DNA from: Candidatus Moraniibacteriota bacterium | GTDB lineage: Bacteria > Patescibacteriota > Minisyncoccia > Moranbacterales > DUUL01 | DNA length: 64,000 nt | Assembly: GCA_041596615.1 (NCBI GenBank) | Contig: JBFHIG010000002.1 | Span: forward strand, 67,162 to 131,161 | Direction: 5' to 3' | Shown here: in pieces, positions 8,745 to 62,758 of the stretch | How the letters are laid out: every line of letters begins with the position of its first letter | Position numbering within the stretch: position 1 is the stretch's first letter | The notes under the pieces: model-generated | Seen by the model: the letters and a program-made list of their open reading frames with translations, nothing else | What the model was told of the DNA's origin: nothing | Databases searched by the model: none | Translations under genes and position numbers: made by a program

Positions 8745-9917
8745 TTGTCCATTCTGATGCACACATACCATCATCATATACATACGTATCTTCCTGACTG
8801 CATGAGCTCGCTGAAAAAAGATGTAAATGGCATCTACTTGATTCATTCCATCAGGGGTTTTATTTTTTCTCTTTTTGGGATATTCATACCAATCTACCTG
8901 TTAACTTTAGATTTTTCAATTGTATTAGTTCTCTCCTATTTTATTATAAGACAAATTTCGATTCTTCTAACAAATTTTTGTGTTGCTTCAATCGCTAATA
9001 AATTGGGACTAAAGCATACCATGCTGATTAGCCTTCCCTTGTCATTAATTTATCTCTTACTACTTCCTCTGTTAAGTTCTTTCCCTAATTTATATTTATT
9101 TTTTGGTTTAGCATTTATCAGTGGCGCAGAAGCTGCCTTATATTGGGTGCCTATGCACTCTTTATTTGCAAGATCAACAAAAAAAGAAGAGAAAAGTTCT
9201 CAGGTTGGAAGACTTCTCTCCTTTCAGCACATAGCCGGAATGCTTGCACCTCTTATTGGTGGAACAATTACGCTTTTTTATGGTATTGAAGTTCTATTTG
9301 GCATAGCAATTATTCTTTTAATGATTCCTCTTGGTATTCTTTTGTACACACCAGAAATAAAACCCCACATTAATTTCAACTTTCGCCATGGACTTGGACT
9401 TTTAAAAAAATATAAGAGACATTATTATCTGACTTGTTCTGAGATTATTGGCAGCACCACCGAATCAATTATTTGGCCACTTTTTGTTTTTTTAGTTTTG
9501 AAAAATGAATTTTCTATTGGACTCATCGGGACGCTCCTTGGTGTAGGAACGGTTTTTTTCTCTTTATTTATGGGTCACAGAACCAACAAAACAAACCGCA
9601 AAAAAATAGTGAAGTTTGCTGCTTTAATGCTAGCAATTGTTTGGACTAGTAAGTTTTTTGCTGAGTCCTCGATTATGATATATGTTCTTTCAATTATTTC
9701 TGGTTTTTTTGTTATTATGTTTTCTGTTCCCAATACAGCAGAAACCTACGAATTAGCAAATAAGGAGAAACATATCGATGAATTTATCATCTTCCGTGAG
9801 GTTCCCATAACTATTGGAAAAATTTTACTGCTTCTTATTTCGATGTTTTTTCTGTCTAAATTAAACCTTGCTTTTATCCTAACTGGTCTTAATTTTTTAT
9901 TAGTGTTTTTTATTTAA
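8745..9917 (+). CDS. MFS-like polytopic membrane transporter
   Basis: About 12 predicted TM segments in two halves. The start is uncertain; ATG 8802 (MSSLKKD) is an alternative. No substrate can be assigned. Confidence 0.5.
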   Translation: MSILMHTYHHHIHTYLPDCMSSLKKDVNGIYLIHSIRGFIFSLFGIFIPIYLLTLDFSIVLVLSYFIIRQISILLTNFCVASIANKLGLKHTMLISLPLSLIYLLLLPLLSSFPNLYLFFGLAFISGAEAALYWVPMHSLFARSTKKEEKSSQVGRLLSFQHIAGMLAPLIGGTITLFYGIEVLFGIAIILLMIPLGILLYTPEIKPHINFNFRHGLGLLKKYKRHYYLTCSEIIGSTTESIIWPLFVFLVLKNEFSIGLIGTLLGVGTVFFSLFMGHRTNKTNRKKIVKFAALMLAIVWTSKFFAESSIMIYVLSIISGFFVIMFSVPNTAETYELANKEKHIDEFIIFREVPITIGKILLLLISMFFLSKLNLAFILTGLNFLLVFFI

Positions 9918-12781: not shown

Positions 12782-13691
12782 ATATTCTTGCCTTTTGAAA
12801 AGCTAATGTTATCTTTGGATTTTTCCAACTAGAAGTGTTGAAAGTATTCAAAACAATACTTGCTCTTGTTAGATTCTTTACGCCTTCACCAAAAGAAAAT
12901 ATAAATGTATTCCCAGATATATCACCTTTTGTATACTCTTCAGCAAAAGAACATTTGAAAAAGCCAACTGAATTATCTTGCCTACATCCTCCGATTATTT
13001 TTGGCTTCTGATTATCCATTGAAATAGCAAAATAATCATTCCACACATCTTTTATGACTTCTTCATTTTTAATTGGTAGCAACTTTTCATCCCATACAAG
13101 AAAAAAAGAATTGTCTCTTGTTTTCAGTATTATACCATCGGGATGAGGGGTTCCTGCAATAATTTTTTCACCCTCCTCAAAAGAACTCTCCATGTCATCA
13201 TCAAAAGTCTCTACTCTATCCCAATCGAACCCCAAGTCTTCAAAAAATTGAGGTCCTAGGAAAGGATTCCACTTTCCCCTTGAATAGACATACACAGCGT
13301 TTTTTGTAGAGACAAGCTTTCCATTTGGGATATCTAGATTATCAGAAAAAATATACTTTCGTAAAACATCTGAATTTTCAATCTCATCACCTAAGGGATA
13401 AAGTTGCACTAAAAAACCTTTTTCAACTTCAACAGACTCTTTCTTTGAAAAAATATTCTCGGGAAGTATCTCAACTGTTGCAGAATAAAAACTATAGCCA
13501 AACTCTGGGTCCACCGTTAAATACCCCTTTTTTTCAGCTGAAAAATCTATGGTCGTAACGGCTTTATTCCTTTTTTCGGAATCAAACTCATTCTTGGGAT
13601 AAAGAATTTTTAAGCCAACAAACAAAATCAGGAATGTTCCCAATAGCCCTACAACCAATGTATTAATTTTTTTTATTTTAAATTCTTGCAT
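12750..13691 (-). CDS. membrane-anchored hypothetical exported protein
   Basis: The track ORF extends to 13751. ATG 13691 (MQEFKIKKINTLVVGLLGTFLILFVGL) gives a signal-anchor and only a short overlap with the upstream gene. Confidence 0.55.
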   Translation of the reverse strand: MQEFKIKKINTLVVGLLGTFLILFVGLKILYPKNEFDSEKRNKAVTTIDFSAEKKGYLTVDPEFGYSFYSATVEILPENIFSKKESVEVEKGFLVQLYPLGDEIENSDVLRKYIFSDNLDIPNGKLVSTKNAVYVYSRGKWNPFLGPQFFEDLGFDWDRVETFDDDMESSFEEGEKIIAGTPHPDGIILKTRDNSFFLVWDEKLLPIKNEEVIKDVWNDYFAISMDNQKPKIIGGCRQDNSVGFFKCSFAEEYTKGDISGNTFIFSFGEGVKNLTRASIVLNTFNTSSWKNPKITLAFQKARIFEKYGEEIFK

Positions 13692-14463
13692 TTTTCCGCT
13701 CCTTTCTTTTAATTTTAGGTGAAAAAATCCCACGATTCTCTTGATATTCATTCCACAACATCAACAAGCATATTCCCAATATCGAAGCTGTAATGGCACT
13801 ATTCATGCCCCTAGGACCTCCCAACAAGAAATTAAATATTGCGTGAACAATTATCGGCAAGCAAATTGTTAGTATAAAAAAATAAAACTTTTTAACACCC
13901 TTTGACAGTTTTGCCTTTGCAAGGAATAACCCAGCTATTCCAGAATAAATTACATGAGCAGAGGTTGAAAGTATAAGCCTAAGCGCTATTACACTGCCAA
14001 AATCAACTGTCTCTTTTGTCTGGGAAATAATGGAAAAATAAACCCCATTCTCAGTCACAGCAAAAGCCAACCCAACAATTAGACCAAAAATCAAACCTTC
14101 ATTTGCATTTTTGATTTTTCTCTTACTTATAACTATCACAATTCCGATTAATTTTGACAGCTCTTCGATTGTTGCGATTAAACCAGCTGATAAGAAAGCA
14201 GTTAACTCAAAAGGCGTCTCGTTAAATAACCAAAACTTTTGCATCCACAACACAATTTCATTCCCACCTCCTGTTTCTGATATAAAAATTTCTAAAATAC
14301 TAGCTGGAATAGCAGTCAAGACTCCCCAAAAAAAAACTTCCGCTAAAAAATTAGAACCTCCTTTTCCGAAATGATTTTTTTTAATAATAAACCAAAGCCA
14401 CCAAGTAATTGGCAGGATTCCAATCATAGCGGCAAAAAGAACATTGTGATATGACACTGTCAT
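13678..14463 (-). CDS. PrsW-like intramembrane protease family protein
   Basis: Polytopic. IEELSKLIG (EExxK), FAVTENGVYF and SAHVIYSGIAG match the arrangement of PrsW conserved motifs. Confidence 0.55.
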   Translation of the reverse strand: MTVSYHNVLFAAMIGILPITWWLWFIIKKNHFGKGGSNFLAEVFFWGVLTAIPASILEIFISETGGGNEIVLWMQKFWLFNETPFELTAFLSAGLIATIEELSKLIGIVIVISKRKIKNANEGLIFGLIVGLAFAVTENGVYFSIISQTKETVDFGSVIALRLILSTSAHVIYSGIAGLFLAKAKLSKGVKKFYFFILTICLPIIVHAIFNFLLGGPRGMNSAITASILGICLLMLWNEYQENRGIFSPKIKRKERKNARI

Positions 14464-27593: not shown

Positions 27594-28760
27594 TTATTTA
27601 TTTTTTTTAATACTTCCATACGCCAGCCTAGAAACAGCCCCAATACTAACCAGCGTAAAGACTGCGCACAACAACCAGCCGATAAGAGGGATAAACCAAA
27701 CGATTTTCATCACAACCACACCAACCACCACTTCTTGCCACCCAACCTCATAGTCCTTTTCTTTTTTCAATATTTTAAGCAACAAACTTCCTAAAACAAT
27801 GCTTGCTATTATCAAAGATAATGTAAGCAATAAAGCATACAGAAGGAAAAACAGTCCTGCTAAATAAAGTCCGACGACTGTAATGGCTAAAATAATTCCA
27901 ATAATCGGGGCTAGAAATAAAACCGCGAAACCCACGCCCATATTTCCCCATACATTTTTCAAACTTTCAATCACAACACTTTTGACAAGTTTGTTAAAAA
28001 TATACACCAGTGCCAAACCGACCACAACACAGGTTATTATATCAAACAACAGAAGGGTAACTAATGCACCAAATATTCCACTCGCTACTGAAGATTTATC
28101 AACTTTATTTATTTCTCTTTGATTAAAATCTACCTTTCCCAATATTTTGGCATCCTTGTGAATCTGAGCTTTTTTTGGTGAAGTATATTTTATATCTTTT
28201 GCAATTTCAGCTGTCTCCCCGATTGTCAAGCTGTCAACCATAATCTTCACTTGCCCCTCCATTTTGTTATTGATGGTCACTTTTCCACCACCGATGGAGA
28301 CATTCCCAACAACTGGGCCTTCGATATCAACTGTTCCGCCTCCGACAATAAGATCGCCCTTTACTGTTGCTGTTTTTGCCAACAAAACATTTCCACCTGC
28401 AATAAATAAATCCTCTGCTATCTCTCCTTGGACAATCACAGTTCCTCCTGCGACATGAACATTATTTCCCACATCTCCTTTGATAGTGATTGTTCCTCCA
28501 GCTCCAGCGAAATTATTCTCAACATCGCTTTCGATAGTTATTACATTTCCTGCGGTATATAAATCATTCTTAACTTCACCATCAATTGAAACAATATTTC
28601 CTGCGGTATATAAATTTTTTACTGATTCGTCTTTACTAACATTGATATTTTGGCCTTCTTTGGCAACTCGAAATTCAGCGGCTCTTGCAAAGACAACACT
28701 TAAAGAAAATAAAACAATCAGACTACCAAGGAATGCGAAAACAATTTTTTTTGATTTCAT
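27594..28760 (-). CDS. bactofilin-like beta-helix repeat protein with N-terminal signal/anchor and C-terminal multi-TM domain
   Basis: MKSKKIVFAFLGSLIVLFSLSVVFARA. Then repeated G-x-V/I motifs (LYTAGNVITIESDV, AGAGGTITIKGDV, VHVAGGTVIVQGEI, LFIAGGNVLL, LIVGGGTVDIEGPV, VSIGGGKVTI). Then about 4 TM helices. Confidence 0.55.
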   Translation of the reverse strand: MKSKKIVFAFLGSLIVLFSLSVVFARAAEFRVAKEGQNINVSKDESVKNLYTAGNIVSIDGEVKNDLYTAGNVITIESDVENNFAGAGGTITIKGDVGNNVHVAGGTVIVQGEIAEDLFIAGGNVLLAKTATVKGDLIVGGGTVDIEGPVVGNVSIGGGKVTINNKMEGQVKIMVDSLTIGETAEIAKDIKYTSPKKAQIHKDAKILGKVDFNQREINKVDKSSVASGIFGALVTLLLFDIITCVVVGLALVYIFNKLVKSVVIESLKNVWGNMGVGFAVLFLAPIIGIILAITVVGLYLAGLFFLLYALLLTLSLIIASIVLGSLLLKILKKEKDYEVGWQEVVVGVVVMKIVWFIPLIGWLLCAVFTLVSIGAVSRLAYGSIKKNK

Positions 28761-29082
28761 AATTTTAAATTTAAAAATTATCCATTCCCCCTCTTTTTAC
28801 TCAAAGAGTAAAGACGACTAAAATTACCCTTATGTCGATGATTGTTTTTAATTGTTATGCTTTAATTTTAGCATGAAATGAAAATGATTGTAATGATTTT
28901 TGTGTTGAAAAGAGATAATGATTTAATTCAAAGCTTAAGGTTGATATTTTCGAAATTACTTTTTTCGTTATTTTTAAAAAAGCCCGAGCGATAAACTCAG
29001 AATAGCTCAATTAAAAAATATGACTAACACAAATAACTATAATTCAAAAGACAGCTTTCCTAGAAAAGCTGTCTTAGCGCTG

Positions 29083-51752: not shown

Positions 51753-52014
51753 TTTTTTACCTTATAAATTATCCTCTATTCAACTTTAAATCCAGCTTTT
51801 CTCATTTCTGAGCAGGTAAGCCAGCGATTGAATATGTGTATTTGCCATTGAAAAACTCCAACGACTACAAGACAATTTAACATATAAAAATAAAAAAGTA
51901 AAGAGGTGTTTTCTTTTGTTTAAGGGATTTTATAACCATATAAAAACTTTTGATATTCACTACTGGTCCTTCGATTTTTTTCCATAACTTCAACTGTTTG
52001 CTTCCAACCAGGTC

Positions 52015-52043
52015 TTGACTAAAAGTTTTTTCAAATATATATT
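52015..52043 (+). promoter_or_regulatory. candidate promoter (TTGACT, 17-nt spacer, TATATT)
   Basis: TTGACT at 52015-52020 and TATATT at 52038-52043, about 100 nt upstream of the 113-aa gene. Confidence 0.35.
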
Positions 52044-52146
52044 ATAAAATTGTGTCCTTATTTCTAGTTCCTAGGATCAATACCTGTTCCATTTTATTTC
52101 AACTAGAGACCGCGGGTGTTCTAAACTTTTACCAGGAGGTAATTCA

Positions 52147-52488
52147 ATGTTGCAATCCCAATCCCAGAAAATAAAAAAGGAAGAAAGAGTTGCTCCTCAG
52201 CCGGAGAAAAAGGATAGAGAGAGAAGGGTAATCAAAACACTTCGTTGTCGAATCTCCAATGTTATTATAGACAATGAAAACCCCAAAAAATCTTTTGTTG
52301 TGCTTACCCCCTTCAAAAAAACTGGGGTAAGGCTTTGCGGCAGCATTACTTGCAGTTATACAAACATAACAACCCCCAGAAAAAAACTAAAGCGTAGTAC
52401 ACCCGTCAAAGCTTTCAACATTCATTTTATACCAAAAAAGGGCTGGCGTGCAGGAGGTGCAATGGTCCTTGATGGAAAAATGAACTGA
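52147..52488 (+). CDS. hypothetical basic 113-aa protein
   Basis: AGGAGG lies 7 nt upstream of the ATG. Lys/Arg-rich. A terminator follows. No motif was recognised. Confidence 0.5.
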   Translation: MLQSQSQKIKKEERVAPQPEKKDRERRVIKTLRCRISNVIIDNENPKKSFVVLTPFKKTGVRLCGSITCSYTNITTPRKKLKRSTPVKAFNIHFIPKKGWRAGGAMVLDGKMN

Positions 52489-52520
52489 TTGTCTTGTTCT
52501 CTATGAAACTCAGCTTACCC

Positions 52521-52560
52521 CAGGGATTTACAGTAAAACTGTAGATCCCTGTTTAATTTT
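52521..52560 (+). terminator. intrinsic terminator
   Basis: CAGGGATTTACAG-taaaa-CTGTAGATCCCTG plus TTTAATTTT. Confidence 0.65.
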
Positions 52561-52819
52561 TTAAATTGACTTTTCTGCCTATAATGCTAATCTAAAATGT
52601 AGATTCTTTTGAAACAAAATCGAGTTTTTCAAAAGATTTCTATCTAAAAAACTTAATTTTCTTTGTTTTTCAAATCATTGAAAAGTAGAAGTTAAAAGAG
52701 TAGAAGATAAAAGGAATACTGAGAATTTCAGTTGTGAGCAGTTGTGCTCCTTTTCCCTTTTACGTTTTGATTTTTACTTTGTATTCTAATGTTTTGGAGA
52801 ATTTGGAAATAAAAAAATT

Positions 52820-54989: not shown

Positions 54990-55082
54990 TTGCATTCTGA
55001 GCGTTTTGTTTAAAGGCGAATCTCTGGTATAATAAATACGAAATTATTTTCAAAAAACAAATAAATATTATAAAGCGTACCT

Positions 55083-56699
55083 ATGTCTTGGTTTACAAAA
55101 AAGAAAGTTGTAGAGGATGATGAAAAAGATTCTTCGGTTTTGACAATTGAAACTATGCACGAAGACTTGGAAGAAAGCTCCAACACTCAAAATGATAAGA
55201 AAAATGATAAGAAAGAAACAGAAAAAAAACCTGAAAAAACAAGCCCTTTTTTAATGGGGAATAGCTCCGAAGGGAAGAATATCACTGAACTAAAACCTAA
55301 GGAAGAAAAAAGTGTGGAGATTAAAAAAGATGAGCTATCAACACAAAAACCGGCAATAGAATTAGCTGATGAAGCTGGGCATATTCCAGAAGAAGACACG
55401 TCTGTTACTAAAAACACCAAGAGCATTGATATAACAAAAAACAAAGAAGAAAAAGAAATAACACACGAGGAAAGTATCTTTAAATCCTTAATTAAAAAGG
55501 AAAAGTCTTTGACAGAGGCAATAAAAAAAGAAGAAAAGCCACTAGAAGAGAGCGATGAAGACAAAATGGAAAAAATTGTTAAATCTGCTAATTTTACTTC
55601 TGAAACAAAAAAAGAACCGGTCGAAACTAATTCTACAATTAGCACCCCCGATAAAAATACAGAAGAAGCTGTTTATATTGACAGAACGAGACAAAACAAA
55701 GCAGCCGCTAAAGAATCAGTAGAGAAAGAAGACGATGGCAAATTATTAATTAATGGCAAATTGGTGTCCACAAAACGACAAGAGACAACCTCCCCTTTTG
55801 GAGTCCCAAAAAAAGGAATCTCTGTTGCTGGGGTAAATAAAATTGCAAACGGAAACGACAAAAACATTTCTACTACTACAAGAAATTTTAATAAACCTTT
55901 ACTTCTTCTGGCAATCATTGTTTTTATTTTAACAATCGTGGCCGTTGGTGCAAATTATTATAGGAATTCTCAAAAAGAACCCTCTCCTGCGACTCCTTCT
56001 ATGGTTACAGAAAATAATTTGGAAGATATCGCATACACAAAAGATAATTTTGCTGGCACTGGAATTGTCTTAAAAACCTCAAAAGAGCTTCTGTTGTCAG
56101 ACTTAAAAGCGTTTGTCAAAAAAGAACAGGCCATTAATCCAGCTAAGTTTATCGGTGGACAATTTATCAGGCCCTTACAAAAAGAAACTGAGTATATAAC
56201 TGGTGAAGAAATTCTCAGCATATTTGGCTCCAAAGACCCTGCAATCAATAGCTTCCTGGATAAACCAGCCATGCTCTTTGTGACAGAAGAGTCCATCGAG
56301 GTAGAAGATCCAGCAACTACGCCCTCCTCAGGAATTAAAACCAATCCAACCATAACAACAAAAAATGTTATTAAAGTGGCATTAATACTTGAACTTAAAA
56401 AAGATACCGAGCCAGGAGATGTAATCGAACGCCTAACTGAAATAGAAACAACTTTTCCAGGGACGTTAAAAGGTTTGATGATTGAAGAAGATATCAAGAT
56501 TGCAAATGAAAAAATTGTTTTTAATCAAGCATCTCCAGAGAAAAAAGATTTTGTGCACACAATTCGCTATTATAATTTTAAATATGGAAATGTAACACGA
56601 TCAATTGAGTGGGGGTCCCTTCTTTATAAAAATAAATCTTACATCTTCTTCTCCACATCCAAGGAAGCCACCAATTCCCTTATAAAAGCCCTTTATTAG
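55083..56699 (+). CDS. hypothetical protein: acidic/Lys-rich disordered N-terminal half, one TM helix, ~250-aa C-terminal domain
   Basis: 538 aa. TM helix LLLLAIIVFILTIVAVGANYY. No motif was recognised. Confidence 0.5.
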   Translation: MSWFTKKKVVEDDEKDSSVLTIETMHEDLEESSNTQNDKKNDKKETEKKPEKTSPFLMGNSSEGKNITELKPKEEKSVEIKKDELSTQKPAIELADEAGHIPEEDTSVTKNTKSIDITKNKEEKEITHEESIFKSLIKKEKSLTEAIKKEEKPLEESDEDKMEKIVKSANFTSETKKEPVETNSTISTPDKNTEEAVYIDRTRQNKAAAKESVEKEDDGKLLINGKLVSTKRQETTSPFGVPKKGISVAGVNKIANGNDKNISTTTRNFNKPLLLLAIIVFILTIVAVGANYYRNSQKEPSPATPSMVTENNLEDIAYTKDNFAGTGIVLKTSKELLLSDLKAFVKKEQAINPAKFIGGQFIRPLQKETEYITGEEILSIFGSKDPAINSFLDKPAMLFVTEESIEVEDPATTPSSGIKTNPTITTKNVIKVALILELKKDTEPGDVIERLTEIETTFPGTLKGLMIEEDIKIANEKIVFNQASPEKKDFVHTIRYYNFKYGNVTRSIEWGSLLYKNKSYIFFSTSKEATNSLIKALY

Positions 56700-56732
56700 C
56701 AACCTGTGGAAAATCTGTGGAAAACTGCGCAA

Positions 56733-56775
56733 AACGACTATTTCTTAGATAACTCTTAAAGATAGTCGTTTTTTG
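56733..56775 (+). terminator. intrinsic terminator
   Basis: AACGACTAT...ATAGTCGTT plus TTTTT. Confidence 0.65.
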
Positions 56776-56804
56776 TTTTATCTAAAGCAAAAAAACATTA
56801 ACAA

Positions 56805-56833
56805 TTGACCGAATGATTATAAAATGCTATAAT
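56805..56833 (+). promoter_or_regulatory. consensus promoter with extended -10 (TTGACC, 17-nt spacer, TGcTATAAT) with no protein gene downstream
   Basis: TTGACC at 56805-56810. TG at 56825-56826. TATAAT at 56828-56833. Confidence 0.6.
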
Positions 56834-56839
56834 GGCTAT

Positions 56840-56962
56840 GTAAGTGAGAAACACATCTCCTTACAAACACACAAGTTCATTAAAAAATTTCTATACTGTA
56901 CTTTCAGCAGAAGTGTTCCAATCGTGCTTTCCCCCTATTCACGATTGGAACTCTTCTGCTGA
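56840..56962 (+). ncRNA. candidate sRNA: 5' hairpin plus a 23-bp hairpin with a C-rich loop
   Basis: The predicted start near 56840 coincides with the hairpin GTAAG(T)GAGA-aacaca-TCTCCTTAC (56840-56864). TCAGCAGAAGTGTTCCAATCGTG (56904-56926), loop CTTTCCCCCTATT, CACGATTGGAACTCTTCTGCTGA (56940-56962), with one mismatch. Confidence 0.45.
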
Positions 56963-57253
56963 CCTAAATAAAAAAACGAAGTCAAACAGTTATAATAATA
57001 TTATAATTACCTAGCGACTTCTCTTCAATAGTGTTAAACACTATAAAAACAAAAATAAAAATAGTGAAGCAAAAATAGTACTTACCAAAACAAAAAAACA
57101 AGTGGGTTTGTCCCAAGGTACGGTAGAAGAATAAACATATACATGTGTAAGCTAGGACACATATCATCTGACGAGAATTCTAAAATAATAATCTGTATTG
57201 CTCAACAAAAACACCCAAAACACCCAAACGAGCGAGAGGATTTTGAGAAATTT

Positions 57254-57385
57254 CGCCAGAAAACCAGTGGCGACACGCCACATTAATAATTATTGTAGGG
57301 TGCTGTCGCCCTGGTAACCAATTCCAAACAAACACTGGTTTAAAAACGTTAGAAGAACACAAGCGCCCAAAAGGCGGTTTTTTTA
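57254..57385 (+). ncRNA. structured RNA segment with competing helices, ending in a terminator (possibly the 3' domain of the same transcript)
   Basis: GTGGCG can pair with CGCCA (57254) or CGCCAC (57275). CCAG(T)GGCGAC (57264-57274) pairs with GTCGCCCTGG (57305-57314). AAACCAGTG (57261-57269) pairs perfectly with CACTGGTTT (57333-57341). CGCC-caaaa-GGCG plus T7 (57364-57385). Confidence 0.4.
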
Positions 57386-57453
57386 TTACAAAAATTTAAA
57401 CTTAAATATTCATACCATTAATTAAAATATTCGGATCAACAACAGTCCCATGT

Positions 57454-57475
57454 CATTCCCGTGCAGGCGGGAATG
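57454..57475. repeat. short GC-rich palindromic element (REP-like)
   Basis: CATTCCCG-tgcagg-CGGGAATG, a perfect 8-bp stem. It resembles the element at 62702-62742 through the shared GGAATG(A/C) end. Confidence 0.5.
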
Positions 57476-57511
57476 CATTAAACTCTACTTGGGAAAAATT
57501 TTCTTTCCAAA

Positions 57512-57540
57512 TAAAAAACGACCTTACTGGCCGTTTTTTA
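57512..57540. terminator. bidirectional terminator
   Basis: AAAAAACGACC-ttact-GGCCGTTTTTT. Confidence 0.55.
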
Positions 57541-57579
57541 CTCTTCTGCGTTTATTCAACTAACTTTTTAGCTAAAACA

Positions 57580-58584
57580 TTAAGCATTACCTAAGTATTT
57601 ATCTACCATAGTTTTGTACTTTTCAGCAATCCCCTGTTTTTTCGTAACTAAAACATGATGAGCAATATTAAGCATCATAACTAAGATTCGCATAAAAACA
57701 TCTTCTTCCTTGGAATGCTCTGGCAGACCAAATTCTTCCAAATAGCCCGTCTTGAGCTCTTCAGCTAGTTCGGGGGAACCTAGCACTTCAAAGTTTACTA
57801 AAAGATGATACAGATTTAGGTGTTTTGTTCCGATTTGCCATTCCTTCATTGGAGGAATACCATCAACCACAAATATCTTTCCACTTTTATAAAAAACATT
57901 TTCATCATGATTATCGACTGAAACAACTAGCTGGGTGATATCAATTTCCTGAAATTTTTTCTTATGTTCCTTAATAAACTTTTTTAAATATAGAAAATAC
58001 TCGGCTTTTCTTTGAAGAGAAATAAAATCCACAGAGATATTGTCAAAAAAATCTTCTAAAAATGAAACTCTAGTTTGCACACTCTCGTACCAATTCATTT
58101 GTCCTGCATCAATTGCAAAAGGGAATTCTCTTATTAACAAGGCCATTTCAGCGCCAATTTGCCTTGCTTCCTTATCTGTTAACTTTCCTTCAAGGAGTAT
58201 ATTAAATAAATTATCCTTTTCCTTTAAACGTTCCATGCCTAATACAAAATCGCTTACTTCAGAATTTGTATTTAAAAACGAAACTTGTTCCTTTTCGACT
58301 TTTATGCCATAAAATGTGTGATATGCTCCCTTGCTAAAATAATGATTCCAATCGTATTCCTTTTTCAAGAAAATACTGCGCTGAATTGGATCGTTTAATT
58401 GTCCAGAGATAATATTACTAGAATCATCTCCCCATTTATAGACTTTGTATACATTCTTTTCGAAAAAATATAGGTATGCCAGTTCTGTTTCAAGACATTG
58501 TGGAATCATTCTCTCTTCTGGCAACCCACTAATCTCACCTCTCTTGAATTTTTCGTGTATAATCTTGGCAATTTCTTTATTCAT
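57580..58584 (-). CDS. protein-kinase-like fold phosphotransferase (APH/choline-kinase-like)
   Basis: 334 aa. Catalytic-loop-like SVDNHDENVF (D-x4-N), followed 12 residues later by FVVDG (DFG-equivalent). Confidence 0.45.
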   Translation of the reverse strand: MNKEIAKIIHEKFKRGEISGLPEERMIPQCLETELAYLYFFEKNVYKVYKWGDDSSNIISGQLNDPIQRSIFLKKEYDWNHYFSKGAYHTFYGIKVEKEQVSFLNTNSEVSDFVLGMERLKEKDNLFNILLEGKLTDKEARQIGAEMALLIREFPFAIDAGQMNWYESVQTRVSFLEDFFDNISVDFISLQRKAEYFLYLKKFIKEHKKKFQEIDITQLVVSVDNHDENVFYKSGKIFVVDGIPPMKEWQIGTKHLNLYHLLVNFEVLGSPELAEELKTGYLEEFGLPEHSKEEDVFMRILVMMLNIAHHVLVTKKQGIAEKYKTMVDKYLGNA

Positions 58585-58586
58585 CT

Positions 58587-59375
58587 TTATGAAATAATTG
58601 TTTTAATATCACCATTATTTTTATCGATGGTAATTTTTTTTGTTTCACCGCGAAAAGTTATTTCTCCTAGAAACTGAGTTTCCTCAGAGGTAAAAATATT
58701 TATTTCTAGAGATTCACCATAATTGACACCTCCGTCTTTTTCTAAATCAGTATTAAAAATCTCTTTTATAAAGGGATTAAGCACTTCTGCGTGAGAGGTG
58801 CTAATAAGATGAGGGATACTCTTTATCCCTGGTTGTTTTTTATGATATCCATCGAAAAAAAGTCCTGCAAATTTCAACCCCAAGCTCGCACGTTTCTTTA
58901 TTTTAGTTCTTGGTTCGAAAACCTCTGGGTCGTCAAATCCGATATTCTCAGGGTCGACATACATTGCAGCAAGCTTTTTTCGCTCAGGATCTCTTTCGAC
59001 TTCAATTTCATCAAAAAACTCCCTTGCCTTTTCAACATCACGAAGTTTCATGGGCTTTATTAATGTTGTCTCTCGTCTTTTGCCCCCTCCTACATTCAAT
59101 GATTCCGCGAGAATATCACCTGTTTGCACAGTTCTTTCTGCGGGAGATGTAGCAATAAAAATATCCTCATTCTCTCCGCTAGCTTCTTTTATCTTTTCTG
59201 CCTCCTTGTATATCCCAGCGACGCCTTCCTTTGTTAGTTTGGGATTTTCGAATGACCTTGGTATTTCACCGTGCCTCATAATAGTAAGCCGTGCAAAAAT
59301 TTTCGTCGGTTCCTTTTCCACACTTCTTTCTGCTTTAACTATATTTTTTCCCTCAAAATTTCCAAAAGCTTCCAT
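58587..59375 (-). CDS. histidine phosphatase superfamily (phosphoglycerate-mutase-like) protein
   Basis: LTIMRHGE (RHG motif), ATSPAERTVQT, STSHAEVL (second His). Confidence 0.65.
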   Translation of the reverse strand: MEAFGNFEGKNIVKAERSVEKEPTKIFARLTIMRHGEIPRSFENPKLTKEGVAGIYKEAEKIKEASGENEDIFIATSPAERTVQTGDILAESLNVGGGKRRETTLIKPMKLRDVEKAREFFDEIEVERDPERKKLAAMYVDPENIGFDDPEVFEPRTKIKKRASLGLKFAGLFFDGYHKKQPGIKSIPHLISTSHAEVLNPFIKEIFNTDLEKDGGVNYGESLEINIFTSEETQFLGEITFRGETKKITIDKNNGDIKTIIS

Positions 59376-62701: not shown

Positions 62702-62742
62702 ATTCCTGACGATGTTTACCCCGCGAATGCTGGGGCAGGAAT
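62702..62742. repeat. GC-rich nested palindromic element (REP-like)
   Basis: ATTCCTG (62702-62708)...CAGGAAT (62736-62742) encloses CCCCG-cgaatg-CTGGGG. Confidence 0.5.
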
Positions 62743-62758
62743 GACACATCCATAAAAA

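Follow-up and report, generated by a model that had tools for sequence, protein, structure and literature searches.

A seemingly undescribed class of large structured non-coding RNA in Patescibacteria

Large and intricately folded RNAs are rare in bacteria, and those with known functions, such as ribosomal RNA (rRNA), RNase P RNA, transfer-messenger RNA (tmRNA) and group I and II introns, are central to the cell. The few that stand outside this group, OLE, GOLLD, ROOL and raiA, are active research targets. Here we analyse a 64,000-nt stretch of a Candidatus Moraniibacteriota contig (JBFHIG010000002.1, positions 67,162 to 131,161 of the forward strand; hereafter the window), which at 56840-57384 appears to carry the founding example of a seemingly undescribed class of large structured non-coding RNA (ncRNA) in Patescibacteria. 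The locus compares with the large 'ornate' bacterial ncRNAs in kind, not by homology: it exceeds about 400 nt, has no conserved open reading frame (ORF), and combines covarying helices, tertiary contacts and conserved unpaired nucleotides in a stand-alone gene. Our full-text survey of the accessible literature found no ncRNA of such kind described for Patescibacteria, the candidate phyla radiation (CPR), Parcubacteria or Moranbacteria, nor did we find one in Rfam 15.

The transcription unit and its relatives

The ncRNA unit is housed in a gap of 880 nt (56700-57580) that separates two convergent genes (Table 1). An initial annotation, made from the letters of the window, had described it as a promoter-to-terminator non-coding transcription unit. 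This description is supported, and all the features that it lists were found where it places them. The promoter matches the sigma-70-type consensus at 11 of 12 positions plus the extended TG and is the top site within 55000-59000. The stem of the proposed terminator consists of only four G-C pairs, which is why a simple terminator scan gave no listing on the + strand; nonetheless, a hairpin with U-run lies at the equivalent position in 25 of 25 delimited homologues. The absence of an ORF preceded by a Shine–Dalgarno (SD) sequence was likewise borne out. The unit contains six ORFs of 39-61 aa, counting both strands, and each is frameshifted or stopped in two or more of its four nearest relatives in the comparison (L002, L003, L004 and L006); a small-protein gene, which the initial annotation had named as a finding that would speak against it, was therefore rejected. 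A mobile or repeated element, such as a miniature inverted-repeat transposable element or a repetitive extragenic palindrome, was rejected too, since no gap segment has a second copy within the 64-kb window. The + strand at 56840-57386 folds to -145.8 kcal/mol, with z = -11.3 against dinucleotide shuffles.

The window has a G+C content of 35%, and its polynucleotide phosphorylase (PNPase, gene pnp) is 87-92% identical to PNPases of metagenome-assembled genomes labelled Candidatus Moraniibacteriota or Patescibacteria. Homologues of the unit were sought in 80 loci fetched via PNPase relatives and compared with the gap by blastn, and by scanning a degenerate pattern of the hairpin apex, with its loop fixed, over genome loci, viral contigs and metagenome contigs. 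The two methods together place the unit in 25 of the 80 pnp-anchored genome loci; these 25 all match the pattern, and among viral contigs the pattern has zero matches. In all, the unit is present at no fewer than 146 loci (26 from genomes, at least 120 from metagenomes) in a fixed gene neighbourhood, and the term 'orphan' in the initial annotation has to be dropped. The 107 full-length copies form 91 clusters below 88% identity. L002-L004 align with the window over practically the entire gap at 82-87% identity, and about 20 remoter relatives keep the hairpin and promoter, always downstream of pnp and with orientation unchanged. Nucleotide identity to L002-L004 is 84-90% for the ncRNA, 79-84% for pnp and 67-77% for the alignable parts of gene X, the gene upstream of the ncRNA; that the ncRNA exceeds pnp while no ORF survives within it indicates that it is under constraint and non-coding.

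Measured from a conserved GUAA to the terminator U-run, homologues span about 387-615 nt, L031 (387 nt) being one of the short members. They have in common TTGACC-N14-TGCTATAAT, the GUAA start, a AGUUCUUU motif, a hairpin with loop AUUUCCCCCUAUU, AAAACAAAAAYAAAAA in two tracts, the motifs GACGGUAGAAG and UCACCC, a 3' hairpin rich in GC and the intrinsic terminator. The promoter in the form TTGAC[C/T]-N14-TGCTATAAT precedes nearly all of them; in one subgroup the -10 reads TATACT. With a covariance model built on hairpin H1, the single window copy scores 82.9 bits on the + strand against 46.1 on the - strand. Of the 80 pnp loci, 29 have a match to this model, and in three of these matches the loop is a variant beyond the search pattern (AAUUUCCCCCUAAUU, GAUAUCCCCCUGUUU and GAUAUCCCCCUAUUC). 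Given the fold z-score and the conservation of the whole unit in many genomes, the arrangement is far beyond chance. Comparison among relatives shows 56840-57384 (+ strand) to be the gene of a predicted stand-alone, non-coding and highly structured RNA, and shows this putative family to be widespread in Patescibacteria (Moraniibacteriota and related lineages).

Table 1. Features of the ncRNA unit and its flanks in the window
Feature	Position	Strand	Remarks
Gene X	55083-56699	+	538-aa ORF; own terminator hairpin at 56731-56772
Two DnaA-box-like 9-mers TGTGGAAAA (pair CTGTGGAAAATCTGTGGAAAAC)	56705-56713, 56716-56724	+	11 bp apart; after the gene X stop codon
Sigma-70-type promoter	56805-56833	+	-35 TTGACC, 17-nt spacer, extended -10 TGcTATAAT
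Predicted ncRNA transcript, ~545 nt	56840-57384	+	Putative start at conserved GUAA, 7 nt past the -10
5'-terminal hairpin GUAAGUGAGA...UCUCCUUAC	56840-56864	+	In minimum free energy (MFE) fold; variable or missing in relatives
AGUUCAUU	56874-56881	+	Window form of family motif AGUUCUUU; in larger members recurs before segment M
Leader strand L	56889-56904	+	5' strand of helix L:M; in MFE fold, pairs with 57115-57131
Hairpin H1	56904-56962	+	Arms 56904-56926 / 56940-56962, 23 nt each, 96% complementary
H1 loop CUUUCCCCCUAUU	56927-56939	+	13 nt; family loop consensus AUUUCCCCCUAUU
Hairpin GAAGUC...GACUUC	56978-57021	+	Internal loop with CCUAGC (57010-57015), one pseudoknot partner
A-rich single-stranded linkers	57045-57062 AAAAACAAAAAUAAAAAU; 57085-57102 CCAAAACAAAAAAACAAG	+	Both conserved
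Segment M, AAGGUACGGUAGAAGAA	57115-57131	+	3' strand of helix L:M
Hairpin H6, AUGUGU-AAGCUAGG-ACACAU	57143-57162	+	Loop GCUAGG (57151-57156) pairs with CCUAGC (57010-57015)
Helix P5	UCUGACGAGA 57167-57176 with UUUCGCCAGA 57251-57260	+	In MFE fold; encloses H8
Hairpin H8, stem UUGCUC/GAGCGA	57198-57235	+	Loop with ACACCC twice (57211-57216, 57220-57225)
3' long hairpin	57263-57315	+	ACCAG-U-GGCGAC-A-CGCC, AU-rich loop, GGUG-CU-GUCGCC-CUGGU
Segment c, CACUGGUUU	57333-57341	+	Alternative partner of AAACCAGUG (57261-57269); excludes base of 3' hairpin
Intrinsic terminator	57364-57384	+	CGCC-CAAAA-GGCG, then U7
Gene 3' of gap	57580-58584	-	334-aa ORF; own terminator 57512-57540

Covarying helices and their competitors

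The initial annotation had made its proposal depend on conservation in relatives, and both sequence and structure are conserved, with compensatory changes. Covariation shows support for a predicted fold with H1, the long-range helix L:M, a loop-loop pseudoknot, a hairpin presenting UCACCC and the GC-rich 3' hairpin. The controls were shuffles, slid columns and the comparison of cognate with non-cognate partners, all of which, unlike R-scape, ignore kinship. For H1, the near-perfect 23-bp hairpin with 13-nt loop of the initial annotation, 94.2% of cells are paired over 122 distinct sequences, 17 of 24 pairs are changed on both sides, and 473 cells are compensatory, where shuffles give 129; when the partner is slid by 1-3 columns, pairing falls to 35-47%. 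Its C-rich loop, already singled out as worthy of attention, is the most conserved feature of the ncRNA, and the loop core UCCCCCU is invariant, also in homologues found independently of the loop pattern. A second conserved C-rich loop is UCACCC, which in relatives sits in the loop of a hairpin with covarying stem (GCC/GGC, GCGC/GCGC, UGAA/UUCA, GUA/UAC, UCGCCA/UGGCGA). The tandem repeat ACACCCAAA noted earlier, read from the sequence at 57211-57219 and 57220-57228, is the window's duplicated form of this family motif.

The 5' half contains the helix L:M. In the Moran-like group its cognate duplexes have a mean of -14.6 kcal/mol compared with -10.8 for non-cognate pairs, with a cognate median rank of 2 among 23, and its compensatory versions include UUUUUACUGUCUUA/UAAGACGGUAAAA, UUCCGCUG/CAGCGGAA and AAUCCACCAUAAG/CUUAUGGUGGAG. 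The loop of H6 pairs with the internal loop of the hairpin at 56978-57021, whose counterpart in other subgroups is a hairpin, H3, with loop AUUCUGAC or AUUCUAAC. At least seven compensatory variants of this pseudoknot occur in relatives: UUCUGAC/GUCAGAA, UUCUGAG/CUCAGAA, UCUAAC/GUUAGA, UCUGAU/AUCAGA, UCCUAAC/GUUAGGA, CUCUAAU/AUUAGAG and CCCUGGU/ACUAGGG. With the two loops set independently by folding, a perfect complement of at least 6 nt is present in 44% of cognate and 17% of non-cognate pairs. P5 also has covarying versions (CCGACGAGA/UUUCGUCGG, CCGAUAAAA/UUUUAUCGG, CCGACAAAAG/UUUUGUCGG and CUGACUUUAG/CUAAGUCGG). The 3' long hairpin is 92.1% paired in 23 Moran-like sequences, with compensatory changes in 7 of 16 pairs, and 91.3% paired in 48 sequences of other subgroups, with such changes in 15 of 16. 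The 5'-terminal hairpin proposed at the transcript start forms in the MFE fold. Between these elements run the A-rich linkers, and each family member inspected has AAAACAAAAAYAAAAA twice; the linkers resemble the A-rich leaders of the window's genes.

Several strands have more than one partner. For the 3' domain, which the initial annotation described as switch-like on the strength of three sets of exclusive pairings, the long hairpin CCAGUGGCGAC:GUCGCCCUGG draws strong support from compensatory changes and AAACCAGUG:CACUGGUUU is upheld in the Moran-like subgroup only, while GUGGCG with CGCCAC is 76.8% paired compared with 73.5% in shuffles, the level expected from composition. The small 3'-domain hairpins GUGGCG/CGCCAC and GGGCGC/GCGCCC, being no better paired than composition predicts, were dropped. 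In the Moran-like subgroup, cognate AAACCAGUG:CACUGGUUU duplexes have a mean of -13.3 kcal/mol against -10.3 for non-cognate ones, and the extensions on their flanks covary as well, independently of the base of the hairpin (AAACC/GGUUU, CUCC/GGAG, UUAUUCC/GGAAUAA, CUACC/GGUAG). A search for a competitor equivalent to segment c in the non-Moran subgroups found none. Segment M, besides pairing with L, is complementary in every subgroup to S3, the outer 3' strand of H1 with a 4-5-nt tail (56951-56966), so that the outer half of H1 has a competitor. Across all groups, cognate M:S3 duplexes have a mean of -16.8 kcal/mol compared with -11.8 with the S3 of other lineages, and in one lineage both strands have wholly changed, in parallel. 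Two strands thereby have two covarying partners each: M, with L or S3, and 57261-57269, with 57311-57315 or 57333-57341. These competing helices may let the ncRNA take up two conformations.

Gene neighbourhood and upstream repeats

The gene order around the family is pnp, X, a DnaA-box-like repeat, the ncRNA and then usually yraN and a dksA-like gene. At 123 of the 131 loci, an X homologue is the ORF directly upstream of the ncRNA. The X protein spans the membrane once and evolves fast, being 42-58% identical where PNPase is 87-92% identical; it has no Pfam family, a profile search of the PDB gave matches to transmembrane segments only, and a word-based homologue search returned two relatives. 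Because a thrombospondin type 1 repeat is inserted after the membrane segment in one homologue (L190 59-919), the conserved domain of X is probably extracytoplasmic. A UPF0102/YraN gene lies downstream of the ncRNA on the same strand in 65 of 115 loci, starting about 10-40 nt past the terminator, and at least in L107 (8717-9521) and L145 (13237-14033) a DksA/TraR-type zinc-finger gene follows yraN. YraN has been described as a nuclease of the transformation D-loop (bioRxiv preprint 10.1101/2024.02.06.579203), a role with no obvious link to RNA. At several loci (L128 about 9190 listed), TATAAT or TATACT is found about 7 nt before the yraN ATG, which suggests that the yraN mRNA may be leaderless there. 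In the window and 11 other loci, the gene downstream of the ncRNA (ileS and others) is convergent.

The DnaA-box-like 9-mers of the window lie about 80-100 bp upstream of the -35 hexamer. The family box has the extended consensus CTGTGGATAACTTGTnnAnAA and the 9-mer form TGTGGA[T/A]AA with 11-bp spacing; L004 (about 13745-13770) has two perfect copies of TGTGGATAA, the complement of the DnaA box TTATCCACA. Of 120 distinct loci, 67 have one box or more in non-coding DNA at -200 to -75 relative to the -35 hexamer, an enrichment of about 30-fold over the background of 0.055 per kb in the same loci. Orientation is identical in 77 of 83 boxes, and 76 of 77 placeable boxes lie past the stop codon of the upstream ORF. 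Each locus has 1-4 boxes (3-4 in L025, L026, L093 and L100), and the window overall is not enriched for such 9-mers. We read the boxes as a putative conserved protein-binding site, most simply for DnaA, tied to the ncRNA promoter and not an origin. Linkage to dnaA was considered and dropped, as an ORF with DnaA signature motifs was found in none of the loci, a weak negative given the strictness of the signature. A replication terminus or dif site was also rejected: cumulative GC skew peaks near 55.6 kb, where genes converge, but skew tracks the coding strand throughout the window.

Two further observations concern non-coding DNA nearby. A GC-rich palindrome, GTCATTCCCGTGCAGGCGGGAATGCAT, is found at 57449-57476, between the ncRNA terminator and that of the next gene; similar elements containing CGGGAATGAC are present near 62719-62745 in the window and downstream of the ncRNA in L123, and the palindrome may be a short dispersed repeat. 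Upstream of pnp, a 1,067-nt gap (51753-52819) has no convincing ORF, an unlikely 113-aa ORF being the sole candidate, and has neither an S15/rpsO-like ORF nor an Rfam match at E up to 0.01. It is partly conserved in L002-L004, at 88% over its first 205 nt and 74% over its last 600, and could hold another unannotated RNA.

Function and comparison with known RNAs

We consider it probable that the ncRNA, of which the window has a single copy, represents a new large structured RNA class and is a stand-alone, trans-acting structural or ribonucleoprotein RNA. It would then be kin in kind to OLE or raiA and would not be a small base-pairing regulator. In such a molecule the rigid 23-bp arm of H1 would display its invariant C-rich loop while L:M would close the 5' half, and the two invariant C-rich loops may be the surfaces by which it recognises a conserved partner, be it a protein or a G-rich RNA. 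Transcription of the ncRNA is probably tuned from the upstream repeat, with DnaA or some other factor binding there. In Escherichia coli, the 3' minor domain of 16S rRNA has GGGUGA and GUAGGGGAA near each other, and on the basis of that sequence it is a possibility that the C-rich loops dock there; if so, the ncRNA would act in trans in the maturation of ribosomes or in controlling the translation of genes that lack an SD. No rRNA gene is present in the 202 fetched sequences (2.17 Mb of loci). The most far-reaching version, a new class of large functional RNA acting as ribonucleoprotein scaffold or ribozyme, near-universal in a major branch of Patescibacteria, with expression coupled to DnaA and loops docking on a universal G-rich partner, seems to us rather unlikely as a whole. 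Several points weigh against the trans-acting structural reading. The promoter, transcript start and terminator are predictions, and the covariation controls share the disregard of kinship mentioned above. Metagenome matches were picked with a pattern that fixes the loop, so that its invariance is partly built in, and the independent test consists of the 29 pnp-anchored matches. No protein of the neighbourhood is an obvious RNA binder, X itself probably having its conserved domain outside the cell; in most other lineages the terminator lies just before yraN, where a cis role is possible; and the competing helices could represent folding intermediates or intermolecular contacts rather than a functional switch.

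Two alternatives start from the surroundings of the unit. The ncRNA could be a long cis-regulatory leader or attenuator of a yraN-dksA-like operon whose downstream genes were lost in the window's lineage. The frequent same-strand yraN gene shortly after the terminator would fit such a leader, as would the competing helices of the 3' part, but we regard it as quite unlikely. The gene that follows in the window is encoded on the opposite strand and has its own terminator, and in this clade the ncRNA is therefore not a leader of it and has nothing downstream to regulate in cis; the window and the 11 other loci with a convergent gene nevertheless keep every RNA domain under strong constraint. The competing helix 57261-57269:57333-57341 is confined to the very subgroup without yraN downstream, and the terminator stem shares no nucleotides with the competing strands. 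No known riboswitch or attenuator, to our knowledge, resembles a 400-600-nt leader whose invariant apical loop lies 450 nt before its terminator. Alternatively, selection may act on the DNA itself, as a replication origin or DnaA-titration site in which DnaA boxes, AT-rich unwinding DNA and single-strand hairpins cooperate. The tandem boxes, conserved in spacing, position and orientation and strongly enriched, together with the conserved A-rich tracts, are in keeping with such an element; we nonetheless find it highly improbable. Promoter and terminator are conserved in every copy, and the sequence adjoining the boxes is strand-specific: the stems tolerate G-U, which is C-A on the other strand (H1 pair 12-70 is G-U in 99 of 122 sequences), and the H1 covariance model prefers the + strand by 37 bits. 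The boxes, fixed and enriched as they are, number just 1-4 per locus, none of the loci has an ORF with the DnaA signature, and the window shows no skew switch beyond gene orientation, its genes converging rather than diverging.

Two other explanations would assign the ncRNA to a known kind of RNA. A highly diverged housekeeping RNA (RNase P RNA, tmRNA, signal recognition particle (SRP) RNA or 6S RNA) that escapes recognition by Rfam in CPR is very hard to credit. The strong promoter and wide distribution are housekeeping-like, and Rfam lacks sensitivity for this lineage, as L016 shows: its RNase P RNA (RNaseP_bact_a, 9142-9668, - strand, E = 4e-24, P4 motifs present) reaches 79.4 bits against a gathering score of 100, and default annotation passes it over. 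The same contig, however, carries its own ncRNA copy (13665-14110, + strand), and the ncRNA is therefore not RNase P RNA; the P4 motifs (GGAAAGUCC ... ACAGAAnnCGGCUUA) are absent from it. The L016 RNase P RNA seemingly has large insertions, and RNase P RNAs of CPR may be systematically under-annotated. Searches with Rfam 15 (cmsearch), ARAGORN and RNase P motifs all failed to give the ncRNA a known identity, and no Rfam family, HEARO included, reached its gathering score on it. At gathering score, Rfam found four transfer RNAs (tRNAs) and nothing else in the whole window, and tRNAs only in five homologous loci. On 56600-57700 at E up to 10 it gave sub-threshold chance matches only, with no SRP, 6S or tmRNA model among them, and for homologues chosen to represent the two other subgroups it gave, with E up to 1, only generic hairpin matches far under threshold. 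ARAGORN detected no tmRNA in the window or 201 loci, and the ncRNA has no tRNA-like domain, CCA end or tag frame, its 3' end being an intrinsic terminator. Its size and multi-domain architecture are also unlike those of SRP or 6S RNA. The remaining alternative, raised in part by the initial annotation as an SD-targeting small RNA, is a base-pairing regulator whose C-rich loops pair with SD regions, as in RsaE/RoxS, or with other G-rich RNA such as rRNA. This would make use of two conserved, unpaired motifs shown in hairpin loops, and a seed of this type would be specific, given that G5 runs are rare in a 35% GC genome. One AGGGGGAA, an 8-nt complement of the invariant loop, lies near a start codon, within AGAGGGGGAAUG at 28776-28787 (- strand) and 26-37 nt before the first codon of ORF 27594-28760; no other site of this kind is near a start codon in the window, and this one may be due to chance. 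The RsaE model also has a weak match on H1 of L107 (24.9 bits, E = 0.075), far under the gathering score of 79, and RsaE/RoxS has no match in the window. Leaders of the 46 long ORFs of the window are mostly A-rich (e.g. AAAUAAACAAAAAUG) and lack an SD, with GAGG in few and no G5 run at SD distance before start codons. SD targeting is unlikely because of this scarcity of SD sequences, and the initial proposal is not supported, although pairing with some G-rich RNA other than SD regions, such as rRNA, is possible. Moreover, a length of 387-615 nt (about 545 nt in the window), covariation in multiple domains and a pseudoknot are unlike 100-nt seed-type small RNAs, and a loop that stays invariant across so deep a radiation points to a universal partner rather than an evolving set of mRNA targets. 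Overall, we judge a base-pairing regulator unlikely.

A structural or ribonucleoprotein RNA, the reading we prefer, would be of interest for several reasons. Patescibacteria/CPR are a huge, mostly uncultivated group with minimal genomes, in which keeping about 0.5 kb of strongly conserved non-coding DNA comes at a cost. About 90 divergent, clearly covarying sequences of the family are already aligned, and the family also supplies an invariant loop as bait or target for mutation, testable conformational alternatives and an unexpected DnaA-box-like link. It also indicates that annotation based on Rfam misses structured RNAs in Patescibacteria.

Of the described systems, ColE1 RNA II, the plasmid replication primer, is a structured transcript of about 550 nt that chooses among exclusive helices formed from three or four related segments. 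The ncRNA is alike in logic only, with a strong promoter, exclusive helices and a replication link in the adjoining DnaA-box-like repeats; its gene lies in the chromosome and has an intrinsic terminator at its end, a search of the locus brought out no antisense equivalent of RNA I, and no origin is evident. RsaE/RoxS-type RNAs share unpaired C-rich motifs in hairpin loops, but are about 100 nt long and target SD regions, which most genes of this genome lack. GOLLD and ROOL (PMC12286853) are large ornate RNAs with kissing-loop contacts like those predicted here. In GOLLD and ROOL these contacts build homo-oligomers (PMC12286853), and the self-complementary strand sets of the ncRNA (M with the 3' strand of H1) might in principle join separate molecules. 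Unlike GOLLD and ROOL, which are often associated with phages or tRNAs, the ncRNA is absent from viral contigs, has a fixed chromosomal neighbourhood and gives no match to their models. The raiA motif RNA (PMC10861870, PMC12968392) is similarly a widespread, stand-alone structured ncRNA with its own promoter and terminator and conserved loops. The raiA RNA is abundant, and at about 200 nt and in Bacillota and Actinomycetota it differs from the Patescibacteria ncRNA, which is two to three times larger and has no match to its model. OLE RNA (ornate, large, extremophilic; an Rfam family; see also PMC12286853) belongs to Bacillota, its model has no match at gathering score or at E up to 10, and it is without a counterpart of the 23-bp arm and invariant C-rich loop; the neighbour X, for its part, has no known family and a seemingly extracellular conserved domain. 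The ncRNA nonetheless resembles OLE as a stand-alone RNA (about 600 nt in OLE) with covarying helices and conserved single-stranded motifs, confined to one lineage and linked in the genome to a gene for a membrane protein.

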